NCBI RefSeq assembly: GCF_000014265.1
Contig: NC_008312.1
Span: forward strand, 3,300,001-3,332,000
Direction of reading: 5' to 3'
DNA length: 32,000 nucleotides
Origin: Trichodesmium erythraeum IMS101
GTDB taxonomy: Bacteria; Cyanobacteriota; Cyanobacteriia; Cyanobacteriales; Microcoleaceae
The translations under genes and the position numbers were made by a program. Of the stretch, positions 4,628 through 32,000 are shown one piece after another (positions within the stretch are counted from its first letter, which is position 1; each line of letters begins with the position of its first letter). Under the pieces are notes generated by a model. That model was not told the origin of the DNA, did no database searches, and worked only from the letters and a program-made list of their open reading frames with translations.

Positions 4628-4646
4628 AGTATAGCTGAAGTCATTT

Positions 4647-4674
4647 CAGTTATCAGTTATCGGTTATCAGTATC
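4647..4674. repeat. heptamer microsatellite (STRR-like)
   Basis: Four tandem heptamers, cagttat cagttat cggttat cagtatc, lie immediately after the pseudogene. Confidence 0.7.
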
Positions 4675-14389: not shown

Positions 14390-15124
14390 CTAGTCGCGAC
14401 TACCACCACTAATTGCAATTAGAAGTCGTAGAATAAATATGAATAGGTTGATATAAGTTAAGTACATTGAGAGAGCTGCGAGAACATACTGATCGTCGCG
14501 ATAAGTACGGGGCATAATATAGAAATCTACTACTGCAGCACCAGCAAATAAAAATACACCAATACCAGAAATGGCAATTTCTAACCACCCTGCAGTATAG
14601 ACACCAAAAAATCTCAAAATAACTTGGCCGATAACCGCCACCAATAATGCAGTTATTCCTAGGCTCACAGTTCTTGTTAAAGCCATTCCATCTTCTTCAG
14701 ACAAATTTGATCCTATTTGACGAGCTGCAATAAAGGTGACACCACAACCACCAGCTGCAAAACCTAGTCCCCCAAGACCTACTCCTTGCGTATTTAAAGC
14801 TATATATACTAAACCAGCCAGGGTATATCCTGATAGCAAGCTATAAGTAGCTAATAAAGGTAGAGCCACATTATTATTACCCTTTTCCGCAATTGTACGG
14901 GCAACAAAAAATAGGGCTAATTCTGCTACCAATGCTATCCAGAAGGTAGTTTGAAATAGACCAGGGTTAGATTTTAAGACTCCTAGGCCACCAAATATAC
15001 CTACTGCTGTAAGAACGAGGCCACCGCCTACAAAAGGTAAAGCATTAACAATGACATTAGGGCCAACTAACGATTGGCCTTTGGCATCACGCATTGCTTG
15101 ACGGAAATTACTGGTATTAGCCAT
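14390..15124 (-). CDS. Bax inhibitor-1/YccA family membrane protein
   Basis: 244 aa with about 7 TM helices and the characteristic C-terminal stretch LSMYLTYINLFIFILRLLIAISGGSRD (compare LYLDFINLFLxLLR in BI-1/YccA proteins). Confidence 0.8.
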   Translation of the reverse strand: MANTSNFRQAMRDAKGQSLVGPNVIVNALPFVGGGLVLTAVGIFGGLGVLKSNPGLFQTTFWIALVAELALFFVARTIAEKGNNNVALPLLATYSLLSGYTLAGLVYIALNTQGVGLGGLGFAAGGCGVTFIAARQIGSNLSEEDGMALTRTVSLGITALLVAVIGQVILRFFGVYTAGWLEIAISGIGVFLFAGAAVVDFYIMPRTYRDDQYVLAALSMYLTYINLFIFILRLLIAISGGSRD

Positions 15125-15926
15125 AATTTTTTCTCTTAGTTAATCAAAAAGAATTTCTATTTATAATATTGTGACACTGGAGTTGATTTTGTGCATATAC
15201 CAAATCCACTATTATGTGAAGTTGACGTACAAGCAAATTTAGGATTCGATGGCTCAGTAACAAACGTTGATATTAGACTTCTCCTCCAAAAAGCTTCTCA
15301 AACCCTTATACTCCTTTTCCAAAATCAGTATTTTTGGATATATATATTATAATGAAACCTGACGAAACATTGCTTGAAATAACGACATTATTTAAGTTTT
15401 GGTGTAGTTGTTACAGGTTTAGTTGCTACCCATCCTCAGAAAAACTCCTAGGCAAAATTTCATAAGACAATTTGATTATTTTTGCAGTTCTTTTAACATA
15501 GTTAAGTTATTTGATTTTTTTTTCGTTATGGTCAAACAATAGACGTTTTTGTATTTTTTTTAAAATTATATCTGCTATATTATATCTGTGAATTAATATT
15601 AGTTATTGTTCAGTTTTTCATTTATATTTTTACTTTTTTGTCAGAGCAAGATTTTTCTATTCATCATTATTATCTAGCCTATATATATTTCATTATGTAC
15701 TATAAAAATCGTAAATTATATTAGATAAAGTATGATATATATTCAAATTAGCTACCCTTAACAATTGTACTTTTCTATGATACTTTATTTACATTCAAAA
15801 TTATTTAGGATTAGTATATATATAATCAATTATTGTTTTGTTATAATTTATTTATTGTGCCCATAAATATTCATTTTTTTATCATAATTGTTCTGACAAA
15901 CTCGATAGCAATAATTATTGCAATAT

Positions 15927-16064
15927 TTATATCAAATAATCAAATATATTGTTGATAGTGAACTCACCTACACCAAAGTTAATTCCTAGTATTAGCAAAT
16001 GTGGGTATATGATGTAAATAGTATGTATAAAGTTAAAATAATTTGCTCTTCTACTTTTAGTCAT
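15927..16064 (-). CDS. candidate small hydrophobic protein (45 aa) with canonical Shine-Dalgarno
   Basis: The ATG at 16064 is preceded by AAGAGGAGGT (GAGGAGG = 16074-16080), an unusual G-rich heptamer in very AT-rich DNA. It encodes MTKSRRANYFNFIHTIYIIYPHLLILGINFGVGEFTINNIFDYLI*. I recognise no homology, and 45 open codons could arise by chance. Confidence 0.25.
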   Translation of the reverse strand: MTKSRRANYFNFIHTIYIIYPHLLILGINFGVGEFTINNIFDYLI

Positions 16065-17629
16065 TTATTTAGACCTCCTCTTAATTTAATTATTTCTTTT
16101 TTTATTTGAGCTATTTTTAGCTTTTTTATTTTTATCTATAATTTTAGCATTTTTTACTAATTTTTTTCCATTTCTTATCAGTAAGATTAACAATTATTTT
16201 TCTTTGTTTTGGATAGTGATTAATATTTTCTAATATTTGATTCATTAGGAGATATTTTTTACAAAATATTCACTACGATTATAGCTTAATTTTTATTTTA
16301 GAGATATCTATTATGTAAAAAGTACTTAATACTAATTGCTATAAATAATGCCAAGTTTGGTAAAAGTTTAGTTATTCAAGAATTCAGAGAAAATCAACAA
16401 CTTTTTTACTACTATTACTTCAATTAATATTAATTTTTAATTTTACTTATTGTCTATTATCCCGCTAACCTTACCCTACTTTTATACTCAATAAAATGTA
16501 GATTTTTTTTTATAAATGTCATAATATAGGGCTACGCAGTATTATTAATGCAATGATATAATGATAAAAATTAAACAAATAATGGAAAAGAAATTCTTCA
16601 GCCTTATAGTTATAATTTACACTCCTTCAAATTAGTATTCTCAAGCATTAAATAACTTACGCAGTCACCATAATATATACTAGGGGGCAACAACCTTAAT
16701 ACTGATAAATAGTATATGATTTAATATTACTGAGTAAGTATATATCAAGTCTAAATAATATCAAAATGACTTACACAAAGGCAATAAATATAGTGCAAAT
16801 ATATCAAATAATCACCATTATTAATAATAAAAATGTCAGATAATTTTAAGATAAATTTAGAGAGAATTTGTCTAGATATATAGATAGCAATTATCCCTCA
16901 AGACTCAATTATAAAGAGTGATAATTTAATTAAAAAGCTATAAAAATGAGAGCAAATAAATTTCCACATTTTTGGGTTGCCTAATTAATCAATTAAGAAA
17001 AACTTAATTGAGACTCTCAGGAAATTTATTAAATATGAAAGGATTAAATTTGATGCTTATGAGAGTTTGCAAAGTTTACTATGGTAATTTTCAGTTAAAA
17101 ATATATCATTAATTTTGTTTAGCCACTTAATTTTCCTTTGGTTAAAAAGCTAAACTCTATAACAAGACAAGAATCAACCCATAGAACATGTAATCAATTC
17201 TATGATTCTACAAGAATTGTAGCCCGAATCAATCAAGTAAAAAAGGTGCTCCAAATCCCCAAATTCAATTATCTAGTAGAGTACAAAATAACTAGTTATC
17301 AAGTATTTCCAGAACAAAATACAATTGAGTTGCAAAATAGTTTTAAAGCTAGTGTCTTTGACTTATGAACTAACCATGATTTAGTCTAGTGCTCAGAATA
17401 GTAAATAAGTCGTATTAGAGTTATTAGATTTGAGGCGAGGTTATTCTGCTCAGTTTTTAGTAAACCTTGAGAGAAAAGAAACTCATAATTTTGAAGAAAA
17501 TTTAGTAGGAATTAATTTAAGTTTAAATGCTGTTTATACTGATAATAATAATAATATTAAAGTAATTATATAATTATAAATATATACTTTATAATAAATG
17601 CTAAAATTTTGTAATAAAAATCGTAAATT

Positions 17630-25507: not shown

Positions 25508-26113
25508 TACAATAACTACTCCACAAATTGAATCTAACTGAATTAGGACTTATGCAAAGAAACCGGGTTTCTCGGATCAATTGTTATTTTAAGAATAGAC
25601 TAAAAAATCAGGTTTCTGGGTTGACCCACGTCAGTCATTAGAATGATAAGTATAGCAAATAATATATGAATTCTGAGAATTCAAAAGTTAGCTCCTATTA
25701 TATCATATCTCTTTGAATAACTAATGAATGTCTGTGAGAAAATTTTTGGGAATGGAAATTGAAAGTAATTGATGTAATCAAAGAATTTTTTATTATGGCT
25801 AATTAATAGGAATTTATTTAAGTACCTAGATAAAATTAATTACTATTATTTATTGATTTATTACCAAATCACAAAAAATATATGTTTTTCAGCTTGAAAG
25901 TATGTGTAATTAATTCTACATATATAGTTATAATTTAAAGCCAAAAAGTTAGGGATAATTATTTTGATAGTAGTACAAAAAATCATCAAATAAGACATTT
26001 AACTATAGTCAAAATTACCACAAACAACTGACAACTGGAAACTGGAAAATATTTATTTAATCTATAATTTTTATTGATTTTTATAAGGTTTTATTGTTTA
26101 ATTTAAGCTATTA

Positions 26114-26209
26114 TTAATGATGCTGTTGATTACTCCCAAAATATCCAACAAAAACTTAAACTATTCTTGATAATGCTATTGATTATTCCGAAAATATTCA
26201 ACAGAAAAA
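26114..26209. repeat. imperfect tandem duplication, about 53-bp period
   Basis: ttaatgatgctgttgattactcccaaaatatccaacaaaaa (26114-26155) and ttgataatgctattgattattccgaaaatattcaacagaaaaa (26167-26209) are about 34/41 identical. The differences are mostly transitions. Confidence 0.6.
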
Positions 26210-27913: not shown

Positions 27914-28837
27914 TTGGCTTACTCAAAAAAATTAATGAATACTAAATTCGATTCACCTGACTTTATTCAAGCAGAAAGTTTGCTACAAGAATTATTTGAA
28001 GAGTTACAAAAACAAGAAGGTTTATTGGCTGGGGGTCAAAAGCTGGGAATTACTACCAGTATAATTAAAGATTTACAGGAGACTAAAGTTAGTTTTGGCA
28101 ACCCTAAAAATGAGTTAATTCCCTTAACAGAAGAAATATTTAAAGAGGCTGAGATAGAGTTAAATCATCTAATCAAGCAACAAATGAAGGATGATTATAA
28201 TTTTTATTATTTGACTCTAAATGTTAATTTGCTTCCCCAGCCAGGAGCTAAATTTTGGCGTTTAACTTGTAAACTTAAGTTAAGTGAAGAAAAAACAATC
28301 ATTCAAAGTATTTTTCCTGAACATAAATGGCAACCAGTTATCAAAATTGGTGTGGGTATGGATATAGGAATTAATCAGAATTTAACTTGGGATGCTGGTA
28401 TTGACTCTTCCATGATAACAGAGGTCTTGAAGTTTGTTCCAGCTAATTTGAAAGCTAATATTGTAAGTAAAAATAAATTTAAAGCTTTTGCTGTTATTCC
28501 TGACTGTAAATATGAGTTAGGTCGTCCAGAAATTGTAGCTGAAGGAATAGGTTCACCAGAGTGTTATTGGCGAATTCAAGACAAGAACATACAGAAAGTT
28601 GGTACGGTTAAGTTTGGAGTTATTTTCAAAGTTCCTAAACAAACAAAATCTATTACTTTAACTGGAATAACTTTGGCTAATATAGATATTAATTTGTTGA
28701 CAGATAATATTAGCGATATTGTTTTAGCTAGGCTTCCTGAAAAAATTCAAGAGTGGTTAGGTTTGGATGCAGAAGAGTCAGCTAAAAAATTTTTCAGAGG
28801 TGACAATGAAAAGTGGGATTTAAAGCTGCCACAGTAA
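27914..28837 (+). CDS. uncharacterised protein (helical N-terminus, beta-rich core, charged helical tail); first gene of CHAT operon
   Basis: 307-aa ORF from TTG 27914, or 300 aa from the more likely ATG 27935. I recognise no motif. The core has alternating hydrophobic strands (YYLTLNVNLL, WRLTCKLKLS, VIKIGVGMDIGIN, KFKAFAVIPDCKYELG, VGTVKFGVIFKVP, SITLTGITLANIDINLL). It lies 54 nt upstream of the CHAT gene on the same strand. Confidence 0.7.
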   Translation: MAYSKKLMNTKFDSPDFIQAESLLQELFEELQKQEGLLAGGQKLGITTSIIKDLQETKVSFGNPKNELIPLTEEIFKEAEIELNHLIKQQMKDDYNFYYLTLNVNLLPQPGAKFWRLTCKLKLSEEKTIIQSIFPEHKWQPVIKIGVGMDIGINQNLTWDAGIDSSMITEVLKFVPANLKANIVSKNKFKAFAVIPDCKYELGRPEIVAEGIGSPECYWRIQDKNIQKVGTVKFGVIFKVPKQTKSITLTGITLANIDINLLTDNISDIVLARLPEKIQEWLGLDAEESAKKFFRGDNEKWDLKLPQ

Positions 28838-28891: not shown

Positions 28892-30991
28892 ATGTCTAAT
28901 AGTTATTATATTTATCGTATTCATCTGAAAAATCATCATAATGTGGAAATTGAAAGATATAATCATAAAAAAAAATTGCCAGGAAGCTCGTCTGGAAAGT
29001 TTTGTTATCAAGAAAAAGAAAAAGAAATTCAAAAGCTTTTGGAAGTTGCTATTAATAATGAACTAAATGCAGAACAAACCAGTCAGTTGGGGGAAGCTTT
29101 ATTTAATAGTTTATTTGATTCTAGATTATGCCAAGATTTTATTAATTTTTACTTTGAAGTTGTACAGAAAAAAAAGCAAAAATTACGAATAGAATTAGAT
29201 ATTGATGAAAAAGAAATGCCAGAATTTGCTGCTTTACCTTGGGAATTTTTATGTATTCCTGAAGAAGTTAATCAAGGTACGATTTGGTTAGGAACAGATC
29301 CTAATTTAATATTTTCTCGCCGTCGTGCTTTATGGAATTCTGCTAAGACAATACAATTAGAAAAAGATGAAAAATTGAGAATTGCTTTAGCTATTTCTGC
29401 ACCTGAAAATGAAGGTCCTGTCGAATATGCAGAAGTACAAGAGTATTTAGAAGAGTTGGCTAAGAAACAATCTGAACAAATTGAATTATTACCTATAATA
29501 AATCCAGCTACAAAAATTGAAATTGATAGATTATTAGAGAAAAAACCTCATATTTTTCATTTTATTGGTCATGGTCGTTTTGAGGATGAAGCAGAGAAAA
29601 AAGTAGGAAAAATTGCTTTAGGAAAAAAAGTTGGAAAAAAAATATTAGCTAGATGGGTTAGTGAGAAATTCTTTGCTCAATTATTTGTTCGTCATCGTCC
29701 TGGTATTGTTGTTTTACAAGCTTGTGAAGGAGGAAAGCAGTCTGCATCTGAAGCTTTTAAGGGAGTTGCTTCTAAAATTGTGGCTCAAAGTATTCCTGTG
29801 GTAGTGGCAATGCAATATAAGGTACAGAATGCTACAGCTAATGCTTTTTCTACGGAATTTTATAGGAGATTAGCAAAGGGTGAACCTGTTGATATTGCTG
29901 CTCAAAATGGTCGTCATGATGTGGCTTTACAAACTGATTATTCAGGTAATGATTTTGCTACACCTGTTATTTTTATGAGTGTAGAAGATGGTTGTTTATT
30001 TCAAAAGGAAGAGGTTCAAAAAAAAATAGTATCTGATTCTTTTTCGTTATCTGAAATAAACCCCAACCAAACGTTTAATATTATTGATGATAATGTTGTG
30101 GAAAATCAGAAAAATCAGTGTCTTGATGATAATAATTATGTTTATTTGGCGATAGATTTAAAATTAGAAAGCACAAAAATTCAGAAAAATGATGCAGACA
30201 AATTCCTGGTTAATACATGGTTGGCAATTCCTCAATCTTCTCAAAGTTTTTATCATAAAAATTTGTTAAATACTTTTGAATATAATCGAACTTATAGTCA
30301 GGCAGAGGTTGAAGAAAAAATTATGAAACTAATTGCAGAATGTAATGAAGAATTAGCAAATATTTTCCCTCCAGAAAAAGATTGGGAGATTGCTATAGAA
30401 TGGGTTCTTCCTAATAATTTATTATCTCTACCTGTTGACTGTTGGGAGTATCGAAAAAATGAAAGGATAGGACGTGGTAAATTTCTTTCTGTTCATATTC
30501 GTTCATCTCAACGTTTACACATAGCTTATAAACATTATCATAAATCATGGAAAGATAAATGGAACTATCTTCAGGGAAACATACAAAATATTAATTTGGG
30601 TAACTATATTTTAGCTTGCCAATGTCAAAATATTAATGATAATTATTTGAAAAATATTGATAATAAAAAGAAGATTCTGGGGATTAATTTCCCCTTCAAA
30701 ATAGAAGAGTTAGAAAATATTACTTATGAGTTAATGATAGAAACAGGAATTCCTATAGCTTTGTGGTCTAGATGTAAAGAGTCTAATGTGAATCACCTTA
30801 TAGATTTAGATACATTGATAAACCCCAATAATGAAAATGTTTTAAATCTACAAAATTTACCTGAATATGTGGAACAGAAGAGGTTAGACTCTCATTCAAA
30901 TGACCCTCATCATTTAGGACATCATCTTTGCTTTTTATGTGAAAATCCTTATAATTATCCAATAAAAAGAAAATTAAATTTTGGGTATTAA
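28892..30991 (+). CDS. CHAT-domain (caspase-fold) cysteine protease with uncharacterised, VMAP-C-like C-terminal domain
   Basis: 699 aa. The CHAT core spans about aa 95-370 (LRIELDI...LPWEFL). The catalytic His is in HIFHFIGHG (H227, nt 29570-29572) and the catalytic Cys in VVLQACEGG (C278, nt 29723-29725). The C-terminal ~285 aa carry IEWVLPNNLLSLPVDCWEY, VHIRSSQRL, SWKDKW, GIPIALWSRC and HLCFLCENP. Confidence 0.85.
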   Translation: MSNSYYIYRIHLKNHHNVEIERYNHKKKLPGSSSGKFCYQEKEKEIQKLLEVAINNELNAEQTSQLGEALFNSLFDSRLCQDFINFYFEVVQKKKQKLRIELDIDEKEMPEFAALPWEFLCIPEEVNQGTIWLGTDPNLIFSRRRALWNSAKTIQLEKDEKLRIALAISAPENEGPVEYAEVQEYLEELAKKQSEQIELLPIINPATKIEIDRLLEKKPHIFHFIGHGRFEDEAEKKVGKIALGKKVGKKILARWVSEKFFAQLFVRHRPGIVVLQACEGGKQSASEAFKGVASKIVAQSIPVVVAMQYKVQNATANAFSTEFYRRLAKGEPVDIAAQNGRHDVALQTDYSGNDFATPVIFMSVEDGCLFQKEEVQKKIVSDSFSLSEINPNQTFNIIDDNVVENQKNQCLDDNNYVYLAIDLKLESTKIQKNDADKFLVNTWLAIPQSSQSFYHKNLLNTFEYNRTYSQAEVEEKIMKLIAECNEELANIFPPEKDWEIAIEWVLPNNLLSLPVDCWEYRKNERIGRGKFLSVHIRSSQRLHIAYKHYHKSWKDKWNYLQGNIQNINLGNYILACQCQNINDNYLKNIDNKKKILGINFPFKIEELENITYELMIETGIPIALWSRCKESNVNHLIDLDTLINPNNENVLNLQNLPEYVEQKRLDSHSNDPHHLGHHLCFLCENPYNYPIKRKLNFGY

Positions 30992-31080
30992 TTTAGTACT
31001 GTTTATTAGCTGACCTTGTGGGAAAAATTAATGGATTTGGTAGTAACATTTTATCAGTTTATTAATTTTGAAACCTGAAA

Positions 31081-32000
31081 CATAACACCTGAGAAAAAAA
31101 AGAATGAATTTTGTTAATTCTTACACCTAATACCTAACACCTGAAACTTAAAATTTTAGAAAAAAGAAAAAATTTTGTTCCTTTTTAAACCTCAAACCTA
31201 AAGCCTAAAGCCTAAAAACTAAAGCCTAAAACCTAAAACCTAAAACCTAAAGCCTAAAACCTAAAACCTAAAACCTAAAACCTAAAACCTAAAGCCTAAA
31301 ACCTAAAACCTAAAGTAACACCTAAAACTCATGAGTAAAAAGAACAAATTTTGTTAATTTTTAAACCTAAAACCTAAAGCCTAAAACCTAAAACCTAAAA
31401 CCTAAAGCCTAAAACCTAAAACCTAAAGTAACACCTAAAACTCATGAGTAAAAAGAACAAATTTTGTTAATTTTTAAACCTAAAACCTAAAGCCTAAAAC
31501 CTAAAGCCTAAAACCTAAAACCTAAAACCTAAAACCTAAAACCTAAAGTAACACCTAAAACTCATGAGTAAAAAGAACAAATTTTGTTAATTTTTAAACC
31601 TAAAACCTAAAACCTAAAACCTAACACCTAAAACCCAATACCTAAAGCCTAAAACCTAACACCTAAAACCTAAAACCTAAAGCCTAAAACCTAAAACCTA
31701 AAGCCTAAAACCTAAAACCTAAAGTAACACCTAAAACTCATGAGTAAAAAGAACAAATTTTGTTAATTTTTAAACCTAAAACCTAAAGCCTAAAACCTAA
31801 TACCTAACACCTAAAACCTAAAGCCTAAAACCTAACACCTAAAACCTAAAGTAACACCTAAAACTCATGAGTAAAAAGAACAAATTTTGTTAATTTTTAA
31901 ACCTAAAACCTAAAGCCTAAAACCTAACACCTAACACCTAATACCTAAAGTCTAATACCTAAAACCTAAAACCTAACACCTAACACCTAAAACTTATGAG
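31081..32000. repeat. nested tandem array: 50-bp constant units separated by 9-18 CCTAAAR heptamers (runs off window end)
   Basis: The constant unit taacacctaaaactcatgagtaaaaagaacaaattttgttaatttttaaa occurs at 31316, 31429, 31549, 31725 and 31852, with a partial variant at 31981. Two degenerate units lie at 31081-31125 and 31147-31189. The heptamer blocks between units contain 18, 9, 10, 18, 11 and 11 copies, so unit spacings are 113, 120, 176 and 127 bp and differ by multiples of 7. Confidence 0.9.

Follow-up and report, generated by a model that had tools for sequence, protein, structure and literature searches.

Anatomy and borders of the array

The stretch of Trichodesmium erythraeum IMS101 analyzed here (NC_008312.1, positions 3,300,001 to 3,332,000 of the forward strand; 32,000 nt, hereafter the window) ends in a hierarchical repeat array in which identical 48-bp units alternate with runs of a heptamer. 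The array is the complete 1004-bp intercistronic spacer from Tery_2132 to Tery_2133. Tery_2132 encodes a CHAT protease joined to a VMAP-C domain (Pfam matches of 1.3e-16 and 1.2e-19, respectively). Tery_2133 encodes a MoxR-type AAA+ ATPase, for which the Pfam models AAA_5, AAA_2 and AAA score above their cut-offs and bpMoxR reaches 24.3 bits against a cut-off of 27. The features of the spacer and its borders are given below; "chimeric" denotes the 48-bp units, whose composite origin is considered in the next section.

28892..30991, + strand: Tery_2132, CHAT protease plus VMAP-C, 699 aa (exact protein ABG51366.1)
30992..31085, + strand: non-repetitive spacer head, 82% identical to Trichodesmium sp. 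MAG_R01, in which the flanking genes are 99-100% identical
31086..31122, + strand: degenerate unit 1 (old box), core AAGAATGAATTTTGTTAATTCTT at 31100-31122, without an ATG
31123..31142, + strand: short interrupted heptamer run, ACACCTA ATACCTA ACACCT
31143..31186, + strand: degenerate unit 2 (old box), core AAGAAAAAATTTTGTTCCTTTTT at 31164-31186
31187..31314, + strand: heptamer block 1, 18 copies of AAACCTA/AAGCCTA
31315..31362, + strand: chimeric unit 1, 48 bp, mini-ORF at 31331-31357
31363..31427, + strand: heptamer block 2, 9 copies
31428..31475, + strand: chimeric unit 2, identical to unit 1
31476..31547, + strand: heptamer block 3, 10 copies
31548..31595, + strand: chimeric unit 3, identical to unit 1
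31596..31723, + strand: heptamer block 4, 18 copies, with variants ACACCTA/ATACCTA/AAACCCA
31724..31771, + strand: chimeric unit 4, identical to unit 1
31772..31850, + strand: heptamer block 5, 11 copies
31851..31898, + strand: chimeric unit 5, identical to unit 1
31899..31995, + strand: terminal heptamer block, 14 copies, the last of which is AAACTTA and supplies the A of the MoxR ATG
31996..32000, + strand: start of Tery_2133 (ATGAG), MoxR-type AAA+ ATPase, 315 aa, MSNWQIFKG..., the rest lying past the window

Two levels of repetition are superimposed in the spacer. Tandem Repeats Finder detects a period-7 array at 31187-31993 (114.6 copies, consensus AAACCTA). At the higher-order level its periods are 113, 120, 127 and 176 bp (91-95% matches), and degenerate units 1 and 2 together form an older period of 64 bp at 31073-31217. 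The constant unit, GTAACACCTAAAACTCATGAGTAAAAAGAACAAATTTTGTTAATTTTT, is present in five identical copies starting at 31315, 31428, 31548, 31724 and 31851, and its 35-nt core, CTCATGAGTAAAAAGAACAAATTTTGTTAATTTTT, occurs five times with no mismatches where shuffled sequences lead one to expect 0.00. The distances between successive units are 113, 120, 176 and 127 bp, each equal to 1 modulo 7, so the separations differ by whole heptamers only. Each unit carries a 13-bp palindrome, AACAAATTTTGTT, and an 8-codon mini-open reading frame (mini-ORF) encoding MSKKNKFC, the first ATG of which is at 31331. The repeats occupy about 915 bp of the spacer in the IMS101 genome, and the + strand of the spacer is 49.5% A, 23.3% C, 21.7% T and 5.5% G.

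Much of the description in the initial annotation, which was made from the letters of the window, is upheld by these measurements. The alternation of a constant unit with a variable microsatellite is real, the repeats do begin about 90 bp past the CHAT stop (the CHAT/VMAP-C ORF ends at 30991), and the two palindromes are present, as is the mini-ORF, with its ATG at 31331 and the equivalent positions. The units nearest CHAT are indeed degenerate, and among the heptamer blocks the ACACCTA and ATACCTA variants are restricted to the distal ones. The array is non-coding as had been stated, with no ORF of at least 20 aa on either strand. Other details require adjustment: the near-identical 50-bp units are five in number with an identical stretch of 48 bp, and the heptamer counts of 18, 9, 10, 18 and 11 are correct for the first five blocks; the terminal block, put at 11, in fact holds 14.

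The array had been thought to run off the end of the window, its full size being left open. Sequence past 32000 is provided by the T. erythraeum GBRTRLIN201 assembly (L001; IMS101-like; accession prefix JAGGDU; PMC9366434), and it places the end of the array at 31995/31996, where the final base of the fourteenth heptamer is also the A of the MoxR ATG. The end of the window, ...ACACCTAAAACTTATGAG, runs on as ATGAGTAATTGGCAAATTTTTAAGGG, the MoxR start, with the L001 assembly reading through; the complete gene lies at L001 13076-14023 and encodes exactly ABG51367.1. About 20 other contigs contain the same array-to-MoxR border, and an independent metagenome scaffold (L154) has the same terminal heptamer block upstream of the same MoxR protein. 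L001 is 100% identical to the window as far as a 100-N gap within the array, around which the order of blocks differs from that in the window. Short-read contigs that enter from the CHAT side all end within the first heptamer run. The array is an internal spacer of the operon and not the 3′ regulatory region of a CHAT operon, which had been one of several possibilities raised.

Composition of the unit and variation among lineages

The origin of the 48-bp unit can be read from its two halves. The 5′ half copies the start context of MoxR, ACACCTAAAACTCATGAGTAA, and the 3′ half is the older A/T-rich box, AAGAAYRAATTTTGTTAATTYTT. Over its first 24 nt, GTAACACCTAAAACTCATGAGTAA, the IMS101 unit agrees at 23 of 24 positions with the MoxR start context of MAG_R01, ACACCTAAAACTCATGAGTAATTGG; the 5′ stretch TAACACCTAAAACTCATGAGTAA equals the MAG_R01 context AAACTCATGAGTAATTGG and is one base removed from that of IMS101 itself. 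The unit's other 24 nt, AAAGAACAAATTTTGTTAATTTTT, correspond to the old box, which reads AAAGAATGAATTTTGTTAATTCTT in box 1 of IMS101 and AAAGAATGAATCTTGTTAATTCTT in box 2 of MAG_R01. The MoxR N-terminus MSNWQIF and the DNA ATGAGTAATTGGCAAATTTTT are kept in Symploca, in Crocosphaera, and in a metagenome contig whose MoxR is 80% identical. Because the start is conserved in such distant orthologues, the gene start is ancestral and the ATGAGTAA of the unit is a copy of it.

To judge from this comparison, the unit is the junction of a tandem segmental duplication that comprises the 3′ part of the box, the heptamer tract and the MoxR start. The two ends were joined at a point 8 nt within the MoxR ORF. 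The mini-ORF is no independent gene; it exists because MoxR codons 1-2 read into the box at the junction. Likewise, the palindrome CTCATGAG exists because the copied MoxR start places CTC before ATG AG(T). The perfect 13-bp palindrome is confined to the young units, the old boxes reading GAATGAATTTTGTTAATTC or AAAAAATTTTGTTCC. The degenerate units near CHAT would owe their form to an older duplication that did not include the gene start; degenerate unit 1 is found in every Trichodesmium spacer compared, MAG_R01 included.

The number of chimeric units differs among lineages, as the following complete spacers illustrate. Apart from the finished IMS101 genome, the comparators are short-read assemblies in which repeats may collapse.

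241 bp: Trichodesmium sp. MAG_R01 (L131), 0 chimeric units
427 bp: L133, 1 chimeric unit
468 bp: T. erythraeum 21-75 (L132), 1 chimeric unit
476 bp: L142-L144, 1 chimeric unit
482 bp: L128, 1 chimeric unit
723 bp: L141, 3 chimeric units
1004 bp: IMS101 (window), 5 chimeric units

Partial or gapped contigs add lower bounds of at least three units (L134 and L129) and at least four (L001). The suggestion that copy number would vary between strains is thereby supported, with 0, 1, 3, at least 3, or 5 units. The MAG_R01 spacer contains the two old boxes and about 10 heptamers but lacks the 48-bp unit. Two alleles of the unit, AAAACTCATG (CTCATG) and AAAAATCATG (AATCATG), are combined differently among lineages. 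The sizes of the heptamer blocks also vary, and the block adjacent to MoxR has 13-14 heptamers in nearly all lineages. In other genera the spacer between VMAP-C and MoxR is 55 bp (the metagenome contig), 181 bp (Symploca) or 61 bp (Crocosphaera), and neither heptamers nor the box were found in these three outgroup spacers.

IMS101 and MAG_R01 are 99-100% identical over the ORF upstream of CHAT (ORF1), most of CHAT, and MoxR. Divergent patches, with identities of 78-91%, occur at window positions 29990-30130, 30430-30575 and 30876-31190; they fall in the VMAP-C half of CHAT and in the spacer head, and identity drops to 61% at the onset of the repeats. This mosaic points either to local hypervariability or to exchange with a divergent allele by recombination.

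The unit is likely to be specific to the Tery_2132/2133 locus, as assessed over the window, L001, and collections of genomes, viral contigs and metagenomes. Among 185,579 representative genomes, no exact copy of the unit core was found, which is weak evidence against dispersal because the unit-bearing Trichodesmium assemblies were likewise unmatched in that scan. No match was found in viral contigs, and the box plus heptamer has a single match in the Joint Genome Institute (JGI) metagenomes, a chance occurrence in an unrelated AT-rich contig. The box is found nowhere outside the array in the window or in L001, and no other runs of the array heptamer occur in the 31 kb of the window outside the array. 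More than 20 independent assemblies have the same architecture at the same locus. The unit's absence from unrelated loci, which the initial annotation had made a test of its reading, thus holds in these collections. A miniature inverted-repeat transposable element (MITE) or other dispersed mobile repeat was rejected, there being no dispersed copies with terminal inverted repeats in the window, L001, or the genome and viral collections.

Runs of the heptamer without the unit are widespread. Among the matches listed, (CCTAAAR) runs of at least four copies form more than 119 stretches in many phyla (L009-L127), in Chamaesiphon (at many loci), Moorena, Bacteroidales, Acidobacteriota, Patescibacteria and others; all of those listed are intergenic, simple, and of at most 18 copies, and none of them is from Trichodesmium. 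A crude ORF analysis reveals no clear rule for their orientation relative to gene starts, and the runs frequently adjoin the end of an opposite-strand ORF, where they may supply its stop codon. Heptamer runs also occur in small viral contigs resembling circular Rep-encoding single-stranded (CRESS) DNA viruses. An apparently circular IMG/VR contig of about 2.5 kb (L164) is an unrelated replicon that carries at least 17 tandem copies of AAACCTA between genes; by eye, its ORFs encode a rolling-circle Rep-like protein with HFHV and GKT motifs and an arginine-rich capsid-like protein. Two further IMG/VR contigs of about 2.5 kb (L166 and L172) have heptamer runs at both ends.

Operon context, origin and possible function

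The Tery_2132/Tery_2133 operon is a predicted vWA-MoxR/VMAP "ternary conflict system" of the kind described by Kaur et al. 2020 (PMC7159879), with Tery_2132 as its putative effector/adaptor: at the IMS101 locus a VMAP-C protein with an effector domain adjoins a MoxR-type AAA+ ATPase. Orthologous operons in the metagenome contig, Symploca and Crocosphaera consist of an effector (TIR or PNP), VMAP-C, MoxR and a large FGE-sulfatase protein, the gap between MoxR and this last gene, the sensor, being 5-6 bp. At every Trichodesmium locus MoxR is followed on its 3′ side by a 168-aa ORF and then by a protein of about 900-1100 aa with a C-terminal FGE-sulfatase (CLec) domain, the only domain that Pfam recognizes in it; there is no vWA match. 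Uncharacterized N-terminal regions are reported for some cyanobacterial targets of diversity-generating retroelements (DGRs), and DGR-diversified CLec proteins have been proposed as the sensors of such conflict systems in multicellular cyanobacteria (Doré et al. 2024, PMC10907252). Tery_2136 is among the 12 DGR targets of IMS101 and is reported to have a frameshift in its variable region (Pfreundt et al., PMC4143802). On the basis of gene numbers and domains, the operon's sensor is most probably Tery_2136. Elsewhere in the window, an exact protein look-up identifies the YebC gene as Tery_2125. The neighbors of the array are CHAT/VMAP-C, MoxR, an IS630 remnant and the FGE-sulfatase protein, with no cas genes among them.

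The 168-aa ORF is the N-terminal helix-turn-helix (HTH) part of an IS630-family transposase (L001 14289-14795; L128-L148). It is intact between MoxR and the sensor gene in all Trichodesmium loci and may be a DNA-binding domain that was domesticated or simply left behind. The large FGE-sulfatase/CLec gene occupies L001 from 15709 onward. Downstream of the window, L001 contains a perfect 671-bp tandem duplication (14752-15422 and 15423-16093), each copy of which holds the IS630-remnant ORF's 3′ end, the spacer, and 128 codons from the start of the sensor gene; a 142-aa fragment ORF is left before the full gene, and other Trichodesmium lineages are single-copy. On the other side, an ORF of 300-307 aa (window 27914-28837), separated from CHAT by 54 bp and conserved in all Trichodesmium loci, has no match in Pfam or NCBIfam and is an uncharacterized first gene of the conflict operon. 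No mention of Tery_2131 to Tery_2134 was found in the literature, and we found no prior description of this array locus.

Signals for transcription or RNA structure were sought in the spacer. The best Rfam matches, with E-values of 0.21 and 0.81, score far under the gathering thresholds. The unit hairpin has a minimum free energy of -2.8 kcal/mol, and z-scores against shuffles on the two strands range from -0.5 to +1.9, none significant. The box hairpin is nearly all A-U and the old boxes fold differently from the unit; the fold of the whole spacer, in which palindromes of separate copies pair together, is uninformative. A structured RNA or known RNA family, including the structured or sponge RNA of the initial annotation, is not supported, no Rfam family exceeding its gathering score and the folds being no more stable than shuffles. 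A consensus scan found neither sigma-70-type promoters nor terminators in the spacer, the promoter scan demanding both hexamers so that an extended -10 element alone would be missed. An intrinsic terminator was dismissed, with no G+C-rich hairpin and U tract and no site in the scan; an AU-rich hairpin predicted just past the CHAT stop lacks conservation in MAG_R01, and its z-score against shuffles is -0.3. Cyanobacteria are not known to have Rho, and a Rho-utilization site was dropped as a reading; so was a telomere-like element, the array being internal to the chromosome and ending at a gene start.

Assembled contigs from one set of runs (Logan, SRR324660xx) cluster at the edges of the array: in this set (L007, L156-L163), many short contigs extend over ORF1-CHAT and as far as 257 nt into the array, and others begin 33 nt before the MoxR ATG and end 30-550 nt past its stop. 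Both edges would be transcribed if these runs are RNA-seq. No paper on them was found.

The array is best explained as a nested variable number tandem repeat (VNTR) that would have been produced by slippage of a heptamer tract, similar to the short tandemly repeated repetitive (STRR) sequences of cyanobacteria, together with unequal recombination after a microhomology-mediated tandem duplication. We assign this account a probability of roughly 0.62. The anatomy and the copy-number variation come directly from the data; the order of events is our reconstruction. An A/C-rich heptamer tract (AAACCTA and variants) would have arisen before the MoxR start codon and been extended by replication slippage, and an old duplication would have produced the two A/T-rich boxes that all Trichodesmium lineages examined share. 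The 3′ part of the box, the heptamer tract, and the MoxR start context as far as ATGAGTAA would then have been duplicated head to tail, giving rise to the chimeric 48-bp unit, with an 8-codon ORF arising by accident alongside the CTCATGAG palindrome. Subsequent unequal homologous recombination between units would have led to the range of 0 to 5 among lineages, and slippage would shift the heptamer count of each block in steps of 7. The spacer would thus have expanded from about 60 bp, as in other genera, to 1004 bp, with the distal, MoxR-proximal part as the recently duplicating one, in line with the initial annotation. Both the 671-bp tandem duplication in L001 and a second T. erythraeum array that contains partial gene duplicates show that the genome and the operon are prone to duplication.

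In this account the array most likely has no dedicated sequence-specific function. A long, G-poor, unstructured and stop-filled spacer would uncouple MoxR from VMAP-C, to which it is tightly coupled elsewhere, and MoxR would then rely on fresh initiation at an AUG without a Shine-Dalgarno sequence. The five units would present decoys for initiation, each identical to the genuine site. MoxR dosage, if affected at all, would change incidentally and with copy number.

Several considerations weigh against the slippage and recombination account. The five units are 100% identical even though the heptamer blocks differ, so that selection on the unit is possible, and the lineages (MoxR 97-100% identical) are too close to separate selection from recent amplification or conversion. 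Unit counts in short-read metagenome assemblies may be collapsed. The unit includes TGtTAATTT, which by eye fits an extended -10 motif. A heptamer tract abutting a start codon is the kind of site proposed to bind a post-transcriptional regulator in the case of the TAACTGA repeats (MacGregor 2015, PMC4679880). Finally, dispersal of the heptamer or box elsewhere in the IMS101 genome is possible.

It is possible that the array tunes MoxR expression, and a slippage-prone expression switch, as first envisaged, is likewise possible. As an expression rheostat or contingency locus, the array would use its heritable number of units or heptamers to tune or switch MoxR and the downstream sensor relative to the CHAT effector, and a population of filaments would hold different settings of a defence or cell-death system. 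Copy number does differ among lineages, the array lies directly on the MoxR start codon with each unit repeating the start context, and the operon is a predicted conflict system that probably includes the DGR target Tery_2136; moreover, the heptamer repeat upstream of Haemophilus influenzae hmw1A, according to PMC8262952 and PMC12721329, controls a phenotypic switch in how this adhesin is expressed. Such a role nevertheless seems unlikely. Bacterial ribosomes initiate internally, and upstream decoy AUGs need not reduce initiation at MoxR; the consensus scan found no promoter whose spacing could matter; the block adjacent to MoxR is rather stable, unlike a fast switch; and the operon carries other insertions and duplications that are obviously non-adaptive. 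A more specific version, strain-variable and heritable dosage control in which the number of decoy-start units and heptamers sets the amount of MoxR and sensor per CHAT effector, is improbable. If it were true, filaments of a multicellular cyanobacterium would differ in the trigger threshold of an immune or cell-death operon that is linked to a DGR, and the locus would be a contingency locus acting on operon stoichiometry, not on an ON/OFF reading frame. Recruitment of a regulator is a still more doubtful role, whether of an S1, cold-shock or RRM-type protein to the heptamer run as single-stranded RNA or DNA, or of an HTH protein, such as the product of the conserved IS630-derived ORF, to the palindromic boxes as duplex DNA. 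The spacer RNA is G-poor and predicted to be unstructured, heptamer repeats that abut start codons have been proposed as regulator sites in Beggiatoaceae and cyanobacteria (PMC4679880), every unit has the 13-bp palindrome, and the HTH ORF is intact in all Trichodesmium loci. Yet the perfect palindrome is limited to the young units, the boxes common to all lineages differ from it, the copied start codon accounts for the CTCATGAG palindrome, and MAG_R01 and the other genera do without units. The irregular spacing of the units, with no helical phasing, argues against the cooperative DNA-binding array that the palindromes had first suggested, and CCTAAAR runs elsewhere show no clear orientation bias toward gene starts in the crude ORF analysis.

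There is little to recommend the view that each unit starts its own transcript, as a promoter array or a source of repeat-derived non-coding RNA (ncRNA). Repeat-derived ncRNAs are very abundant in T. erythraeum, where a seven-repeat array yields the most abundant RNA (PMC4143802), and TGtTAATTT resembles an extended -10 motif. The older boxes, however, have TAATTC or TTCCTT at the corresponding position and so lose the invariant final T; the consensus scan finds no site; the predicted RNA has neither a stable structure nor an Rfam match; and the main text of the differential RNA sequencing paper (PMC4143802) does not mention the locus. Least credible is a generic dispersed repeat, STRR- or MITE-like, or an artefact of assembly. 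The heptamer motif is common in many genomes, with many loci in Chamaesiphon, and short-read assemblies do conflict over block order, L001 having its 100-N gap. Against this stand the lack of unit-core matches in representative genomes and viral contigs, the lone chance match in the JGI metagenomes, the confinement of the box to the array in the window and L001, the recurrence of the same architecture in more than 20 independent assemblies, and the locus-specific sequence, the MoxR start, that the unit itself contains.

On the slippage and recombination account, the array is a clear example of how the non-coding fraction of Trichodesmium may grow: a spacer of about 60 bp would have become one of 1 kb in which a gene start is copied five times. 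Slippage and unequal recombination would account for the palindromes and the mini-ORF with no need to invoke function. The array also explains why short-read assemblies break at this locus, and it offers a practical VNTR strain marker for Trichodesmium populations. Should copy number tune the VMAP/MoxR system, which appears to include one of the 12 DGR-diversified sensors, repeat instability would be linked to the control of immunity or cell death in a globally important nitrogen fixer.

Other repeats occur in the window. Between 15124 and 17630, about 2.5 kb have no ORF of at least 100 aa and a G+C content of about 25%, and Tandem Repeats Finder detects several small AT-rich tandem repeats there (16105-17595); such a region is typical of the genome's large non-coding fraction. 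A non-coding 53-bp unit is present twice in tandem (83% matches) at 26103-26208, upstream of a cupin gene. Within the CHAT gene, an in-frame imperfect duplication of 27 bp (29597-29648) encodes KKVGKIALG / KKVGKKILA.

Comparison with known repeat systems

The alternation of constant and variable segments, and a short palindrome in the constant one, invited comparison with CRISPR arrays. The analogy does not survive inspection of the "spacers", which are slippage runs of a single heptamer (9-18 copies) and not unique sequences, and the repeat here is derived from the start of a neighboring gene. T. erythraeum has been reported to lack cas genes (PMC4143802).

The heptamer runs taken by themselves constitute a simple sequence repeat (SSR), being tandem heptanucleotides in a non-coding region. 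Like the STRR sequences and other long heptamer SSRs, they are intergenic in a filamentous cyanobacterium. The STRR heptamers were reportedly described by Mazel et al. in 1990. STRR1-3 have the motifs CCCCAGT, TTGGTCA and CAACAGT, from which the AAACCTA/AAGCCTA of the present array differs; its runs are also embedded in a higher-order repeat, and Trichodesmium differs further in having no heterocysts. Heptamers are the commonest class of long SSR in prokaryotes according to Mrazek et al. 2007, as cited in PMC4679880.

A closer parallel in position is provided by the TAACTGA direct repeats that MacGregor 2015 (PMC4679880) reported from Beggiatoaceae, Cyanobacteria and Bacteroidetes. These likewise place stops in all frames, and a start codon follows within a few nucleotides; in IMS101 the last heptamer overlaps the MoxR ATG, and the motif is different. 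TAACTGA copies number 2-6 per set in the Guaymas 'Maribeggiatoa' and up to 43 in some Bacteroidetes and Cyanobacteria (PMC4679880), compared with about 80 heptamers here. For both, a regulatory role is a hypothesis. The window itself has 3.7 tandem copies of TCAGTTA (TAACTGA on the - strand) at 4646-4671. The H. influenzae hmw1A SSR is, again, a 7-bp repeat of an upstream region or 5′ untranslated region with a strain-variable copy number, and it may serve as a model of repeat number setting the level of expression. In that case, as PMC8262952 and PMC12721329 relate, an effect on expression was demonstrated experimentally, whereas the present array lies within an operon and not behind a mapped promoter.

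The array as a whole corresponds most closely to a VNTR or minisatellite. It is a head-to-tail repeat, with units of about 113-176 bp, and its copy number at one locus is polymorphic, ranging from 0 to 5 between strains (mostly short-read assemblies). As in other minisatellites, it is non-coding, its inner 7-bp repeat slips independently, and it breaks short-read assemblies. It differs in that the outer unit has taken in the first 8 nt of the downstream gene together with its 5′ context; having captured the MoxR start, every unit carries a copy of the start codon. A related case may be found in the same genome, in the tandem array of more than 6 kb at Tery_0080, whose repeats contain a partial duplicate of the adjacent gene (Pfreundt et al. 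2014, PMC4143802).

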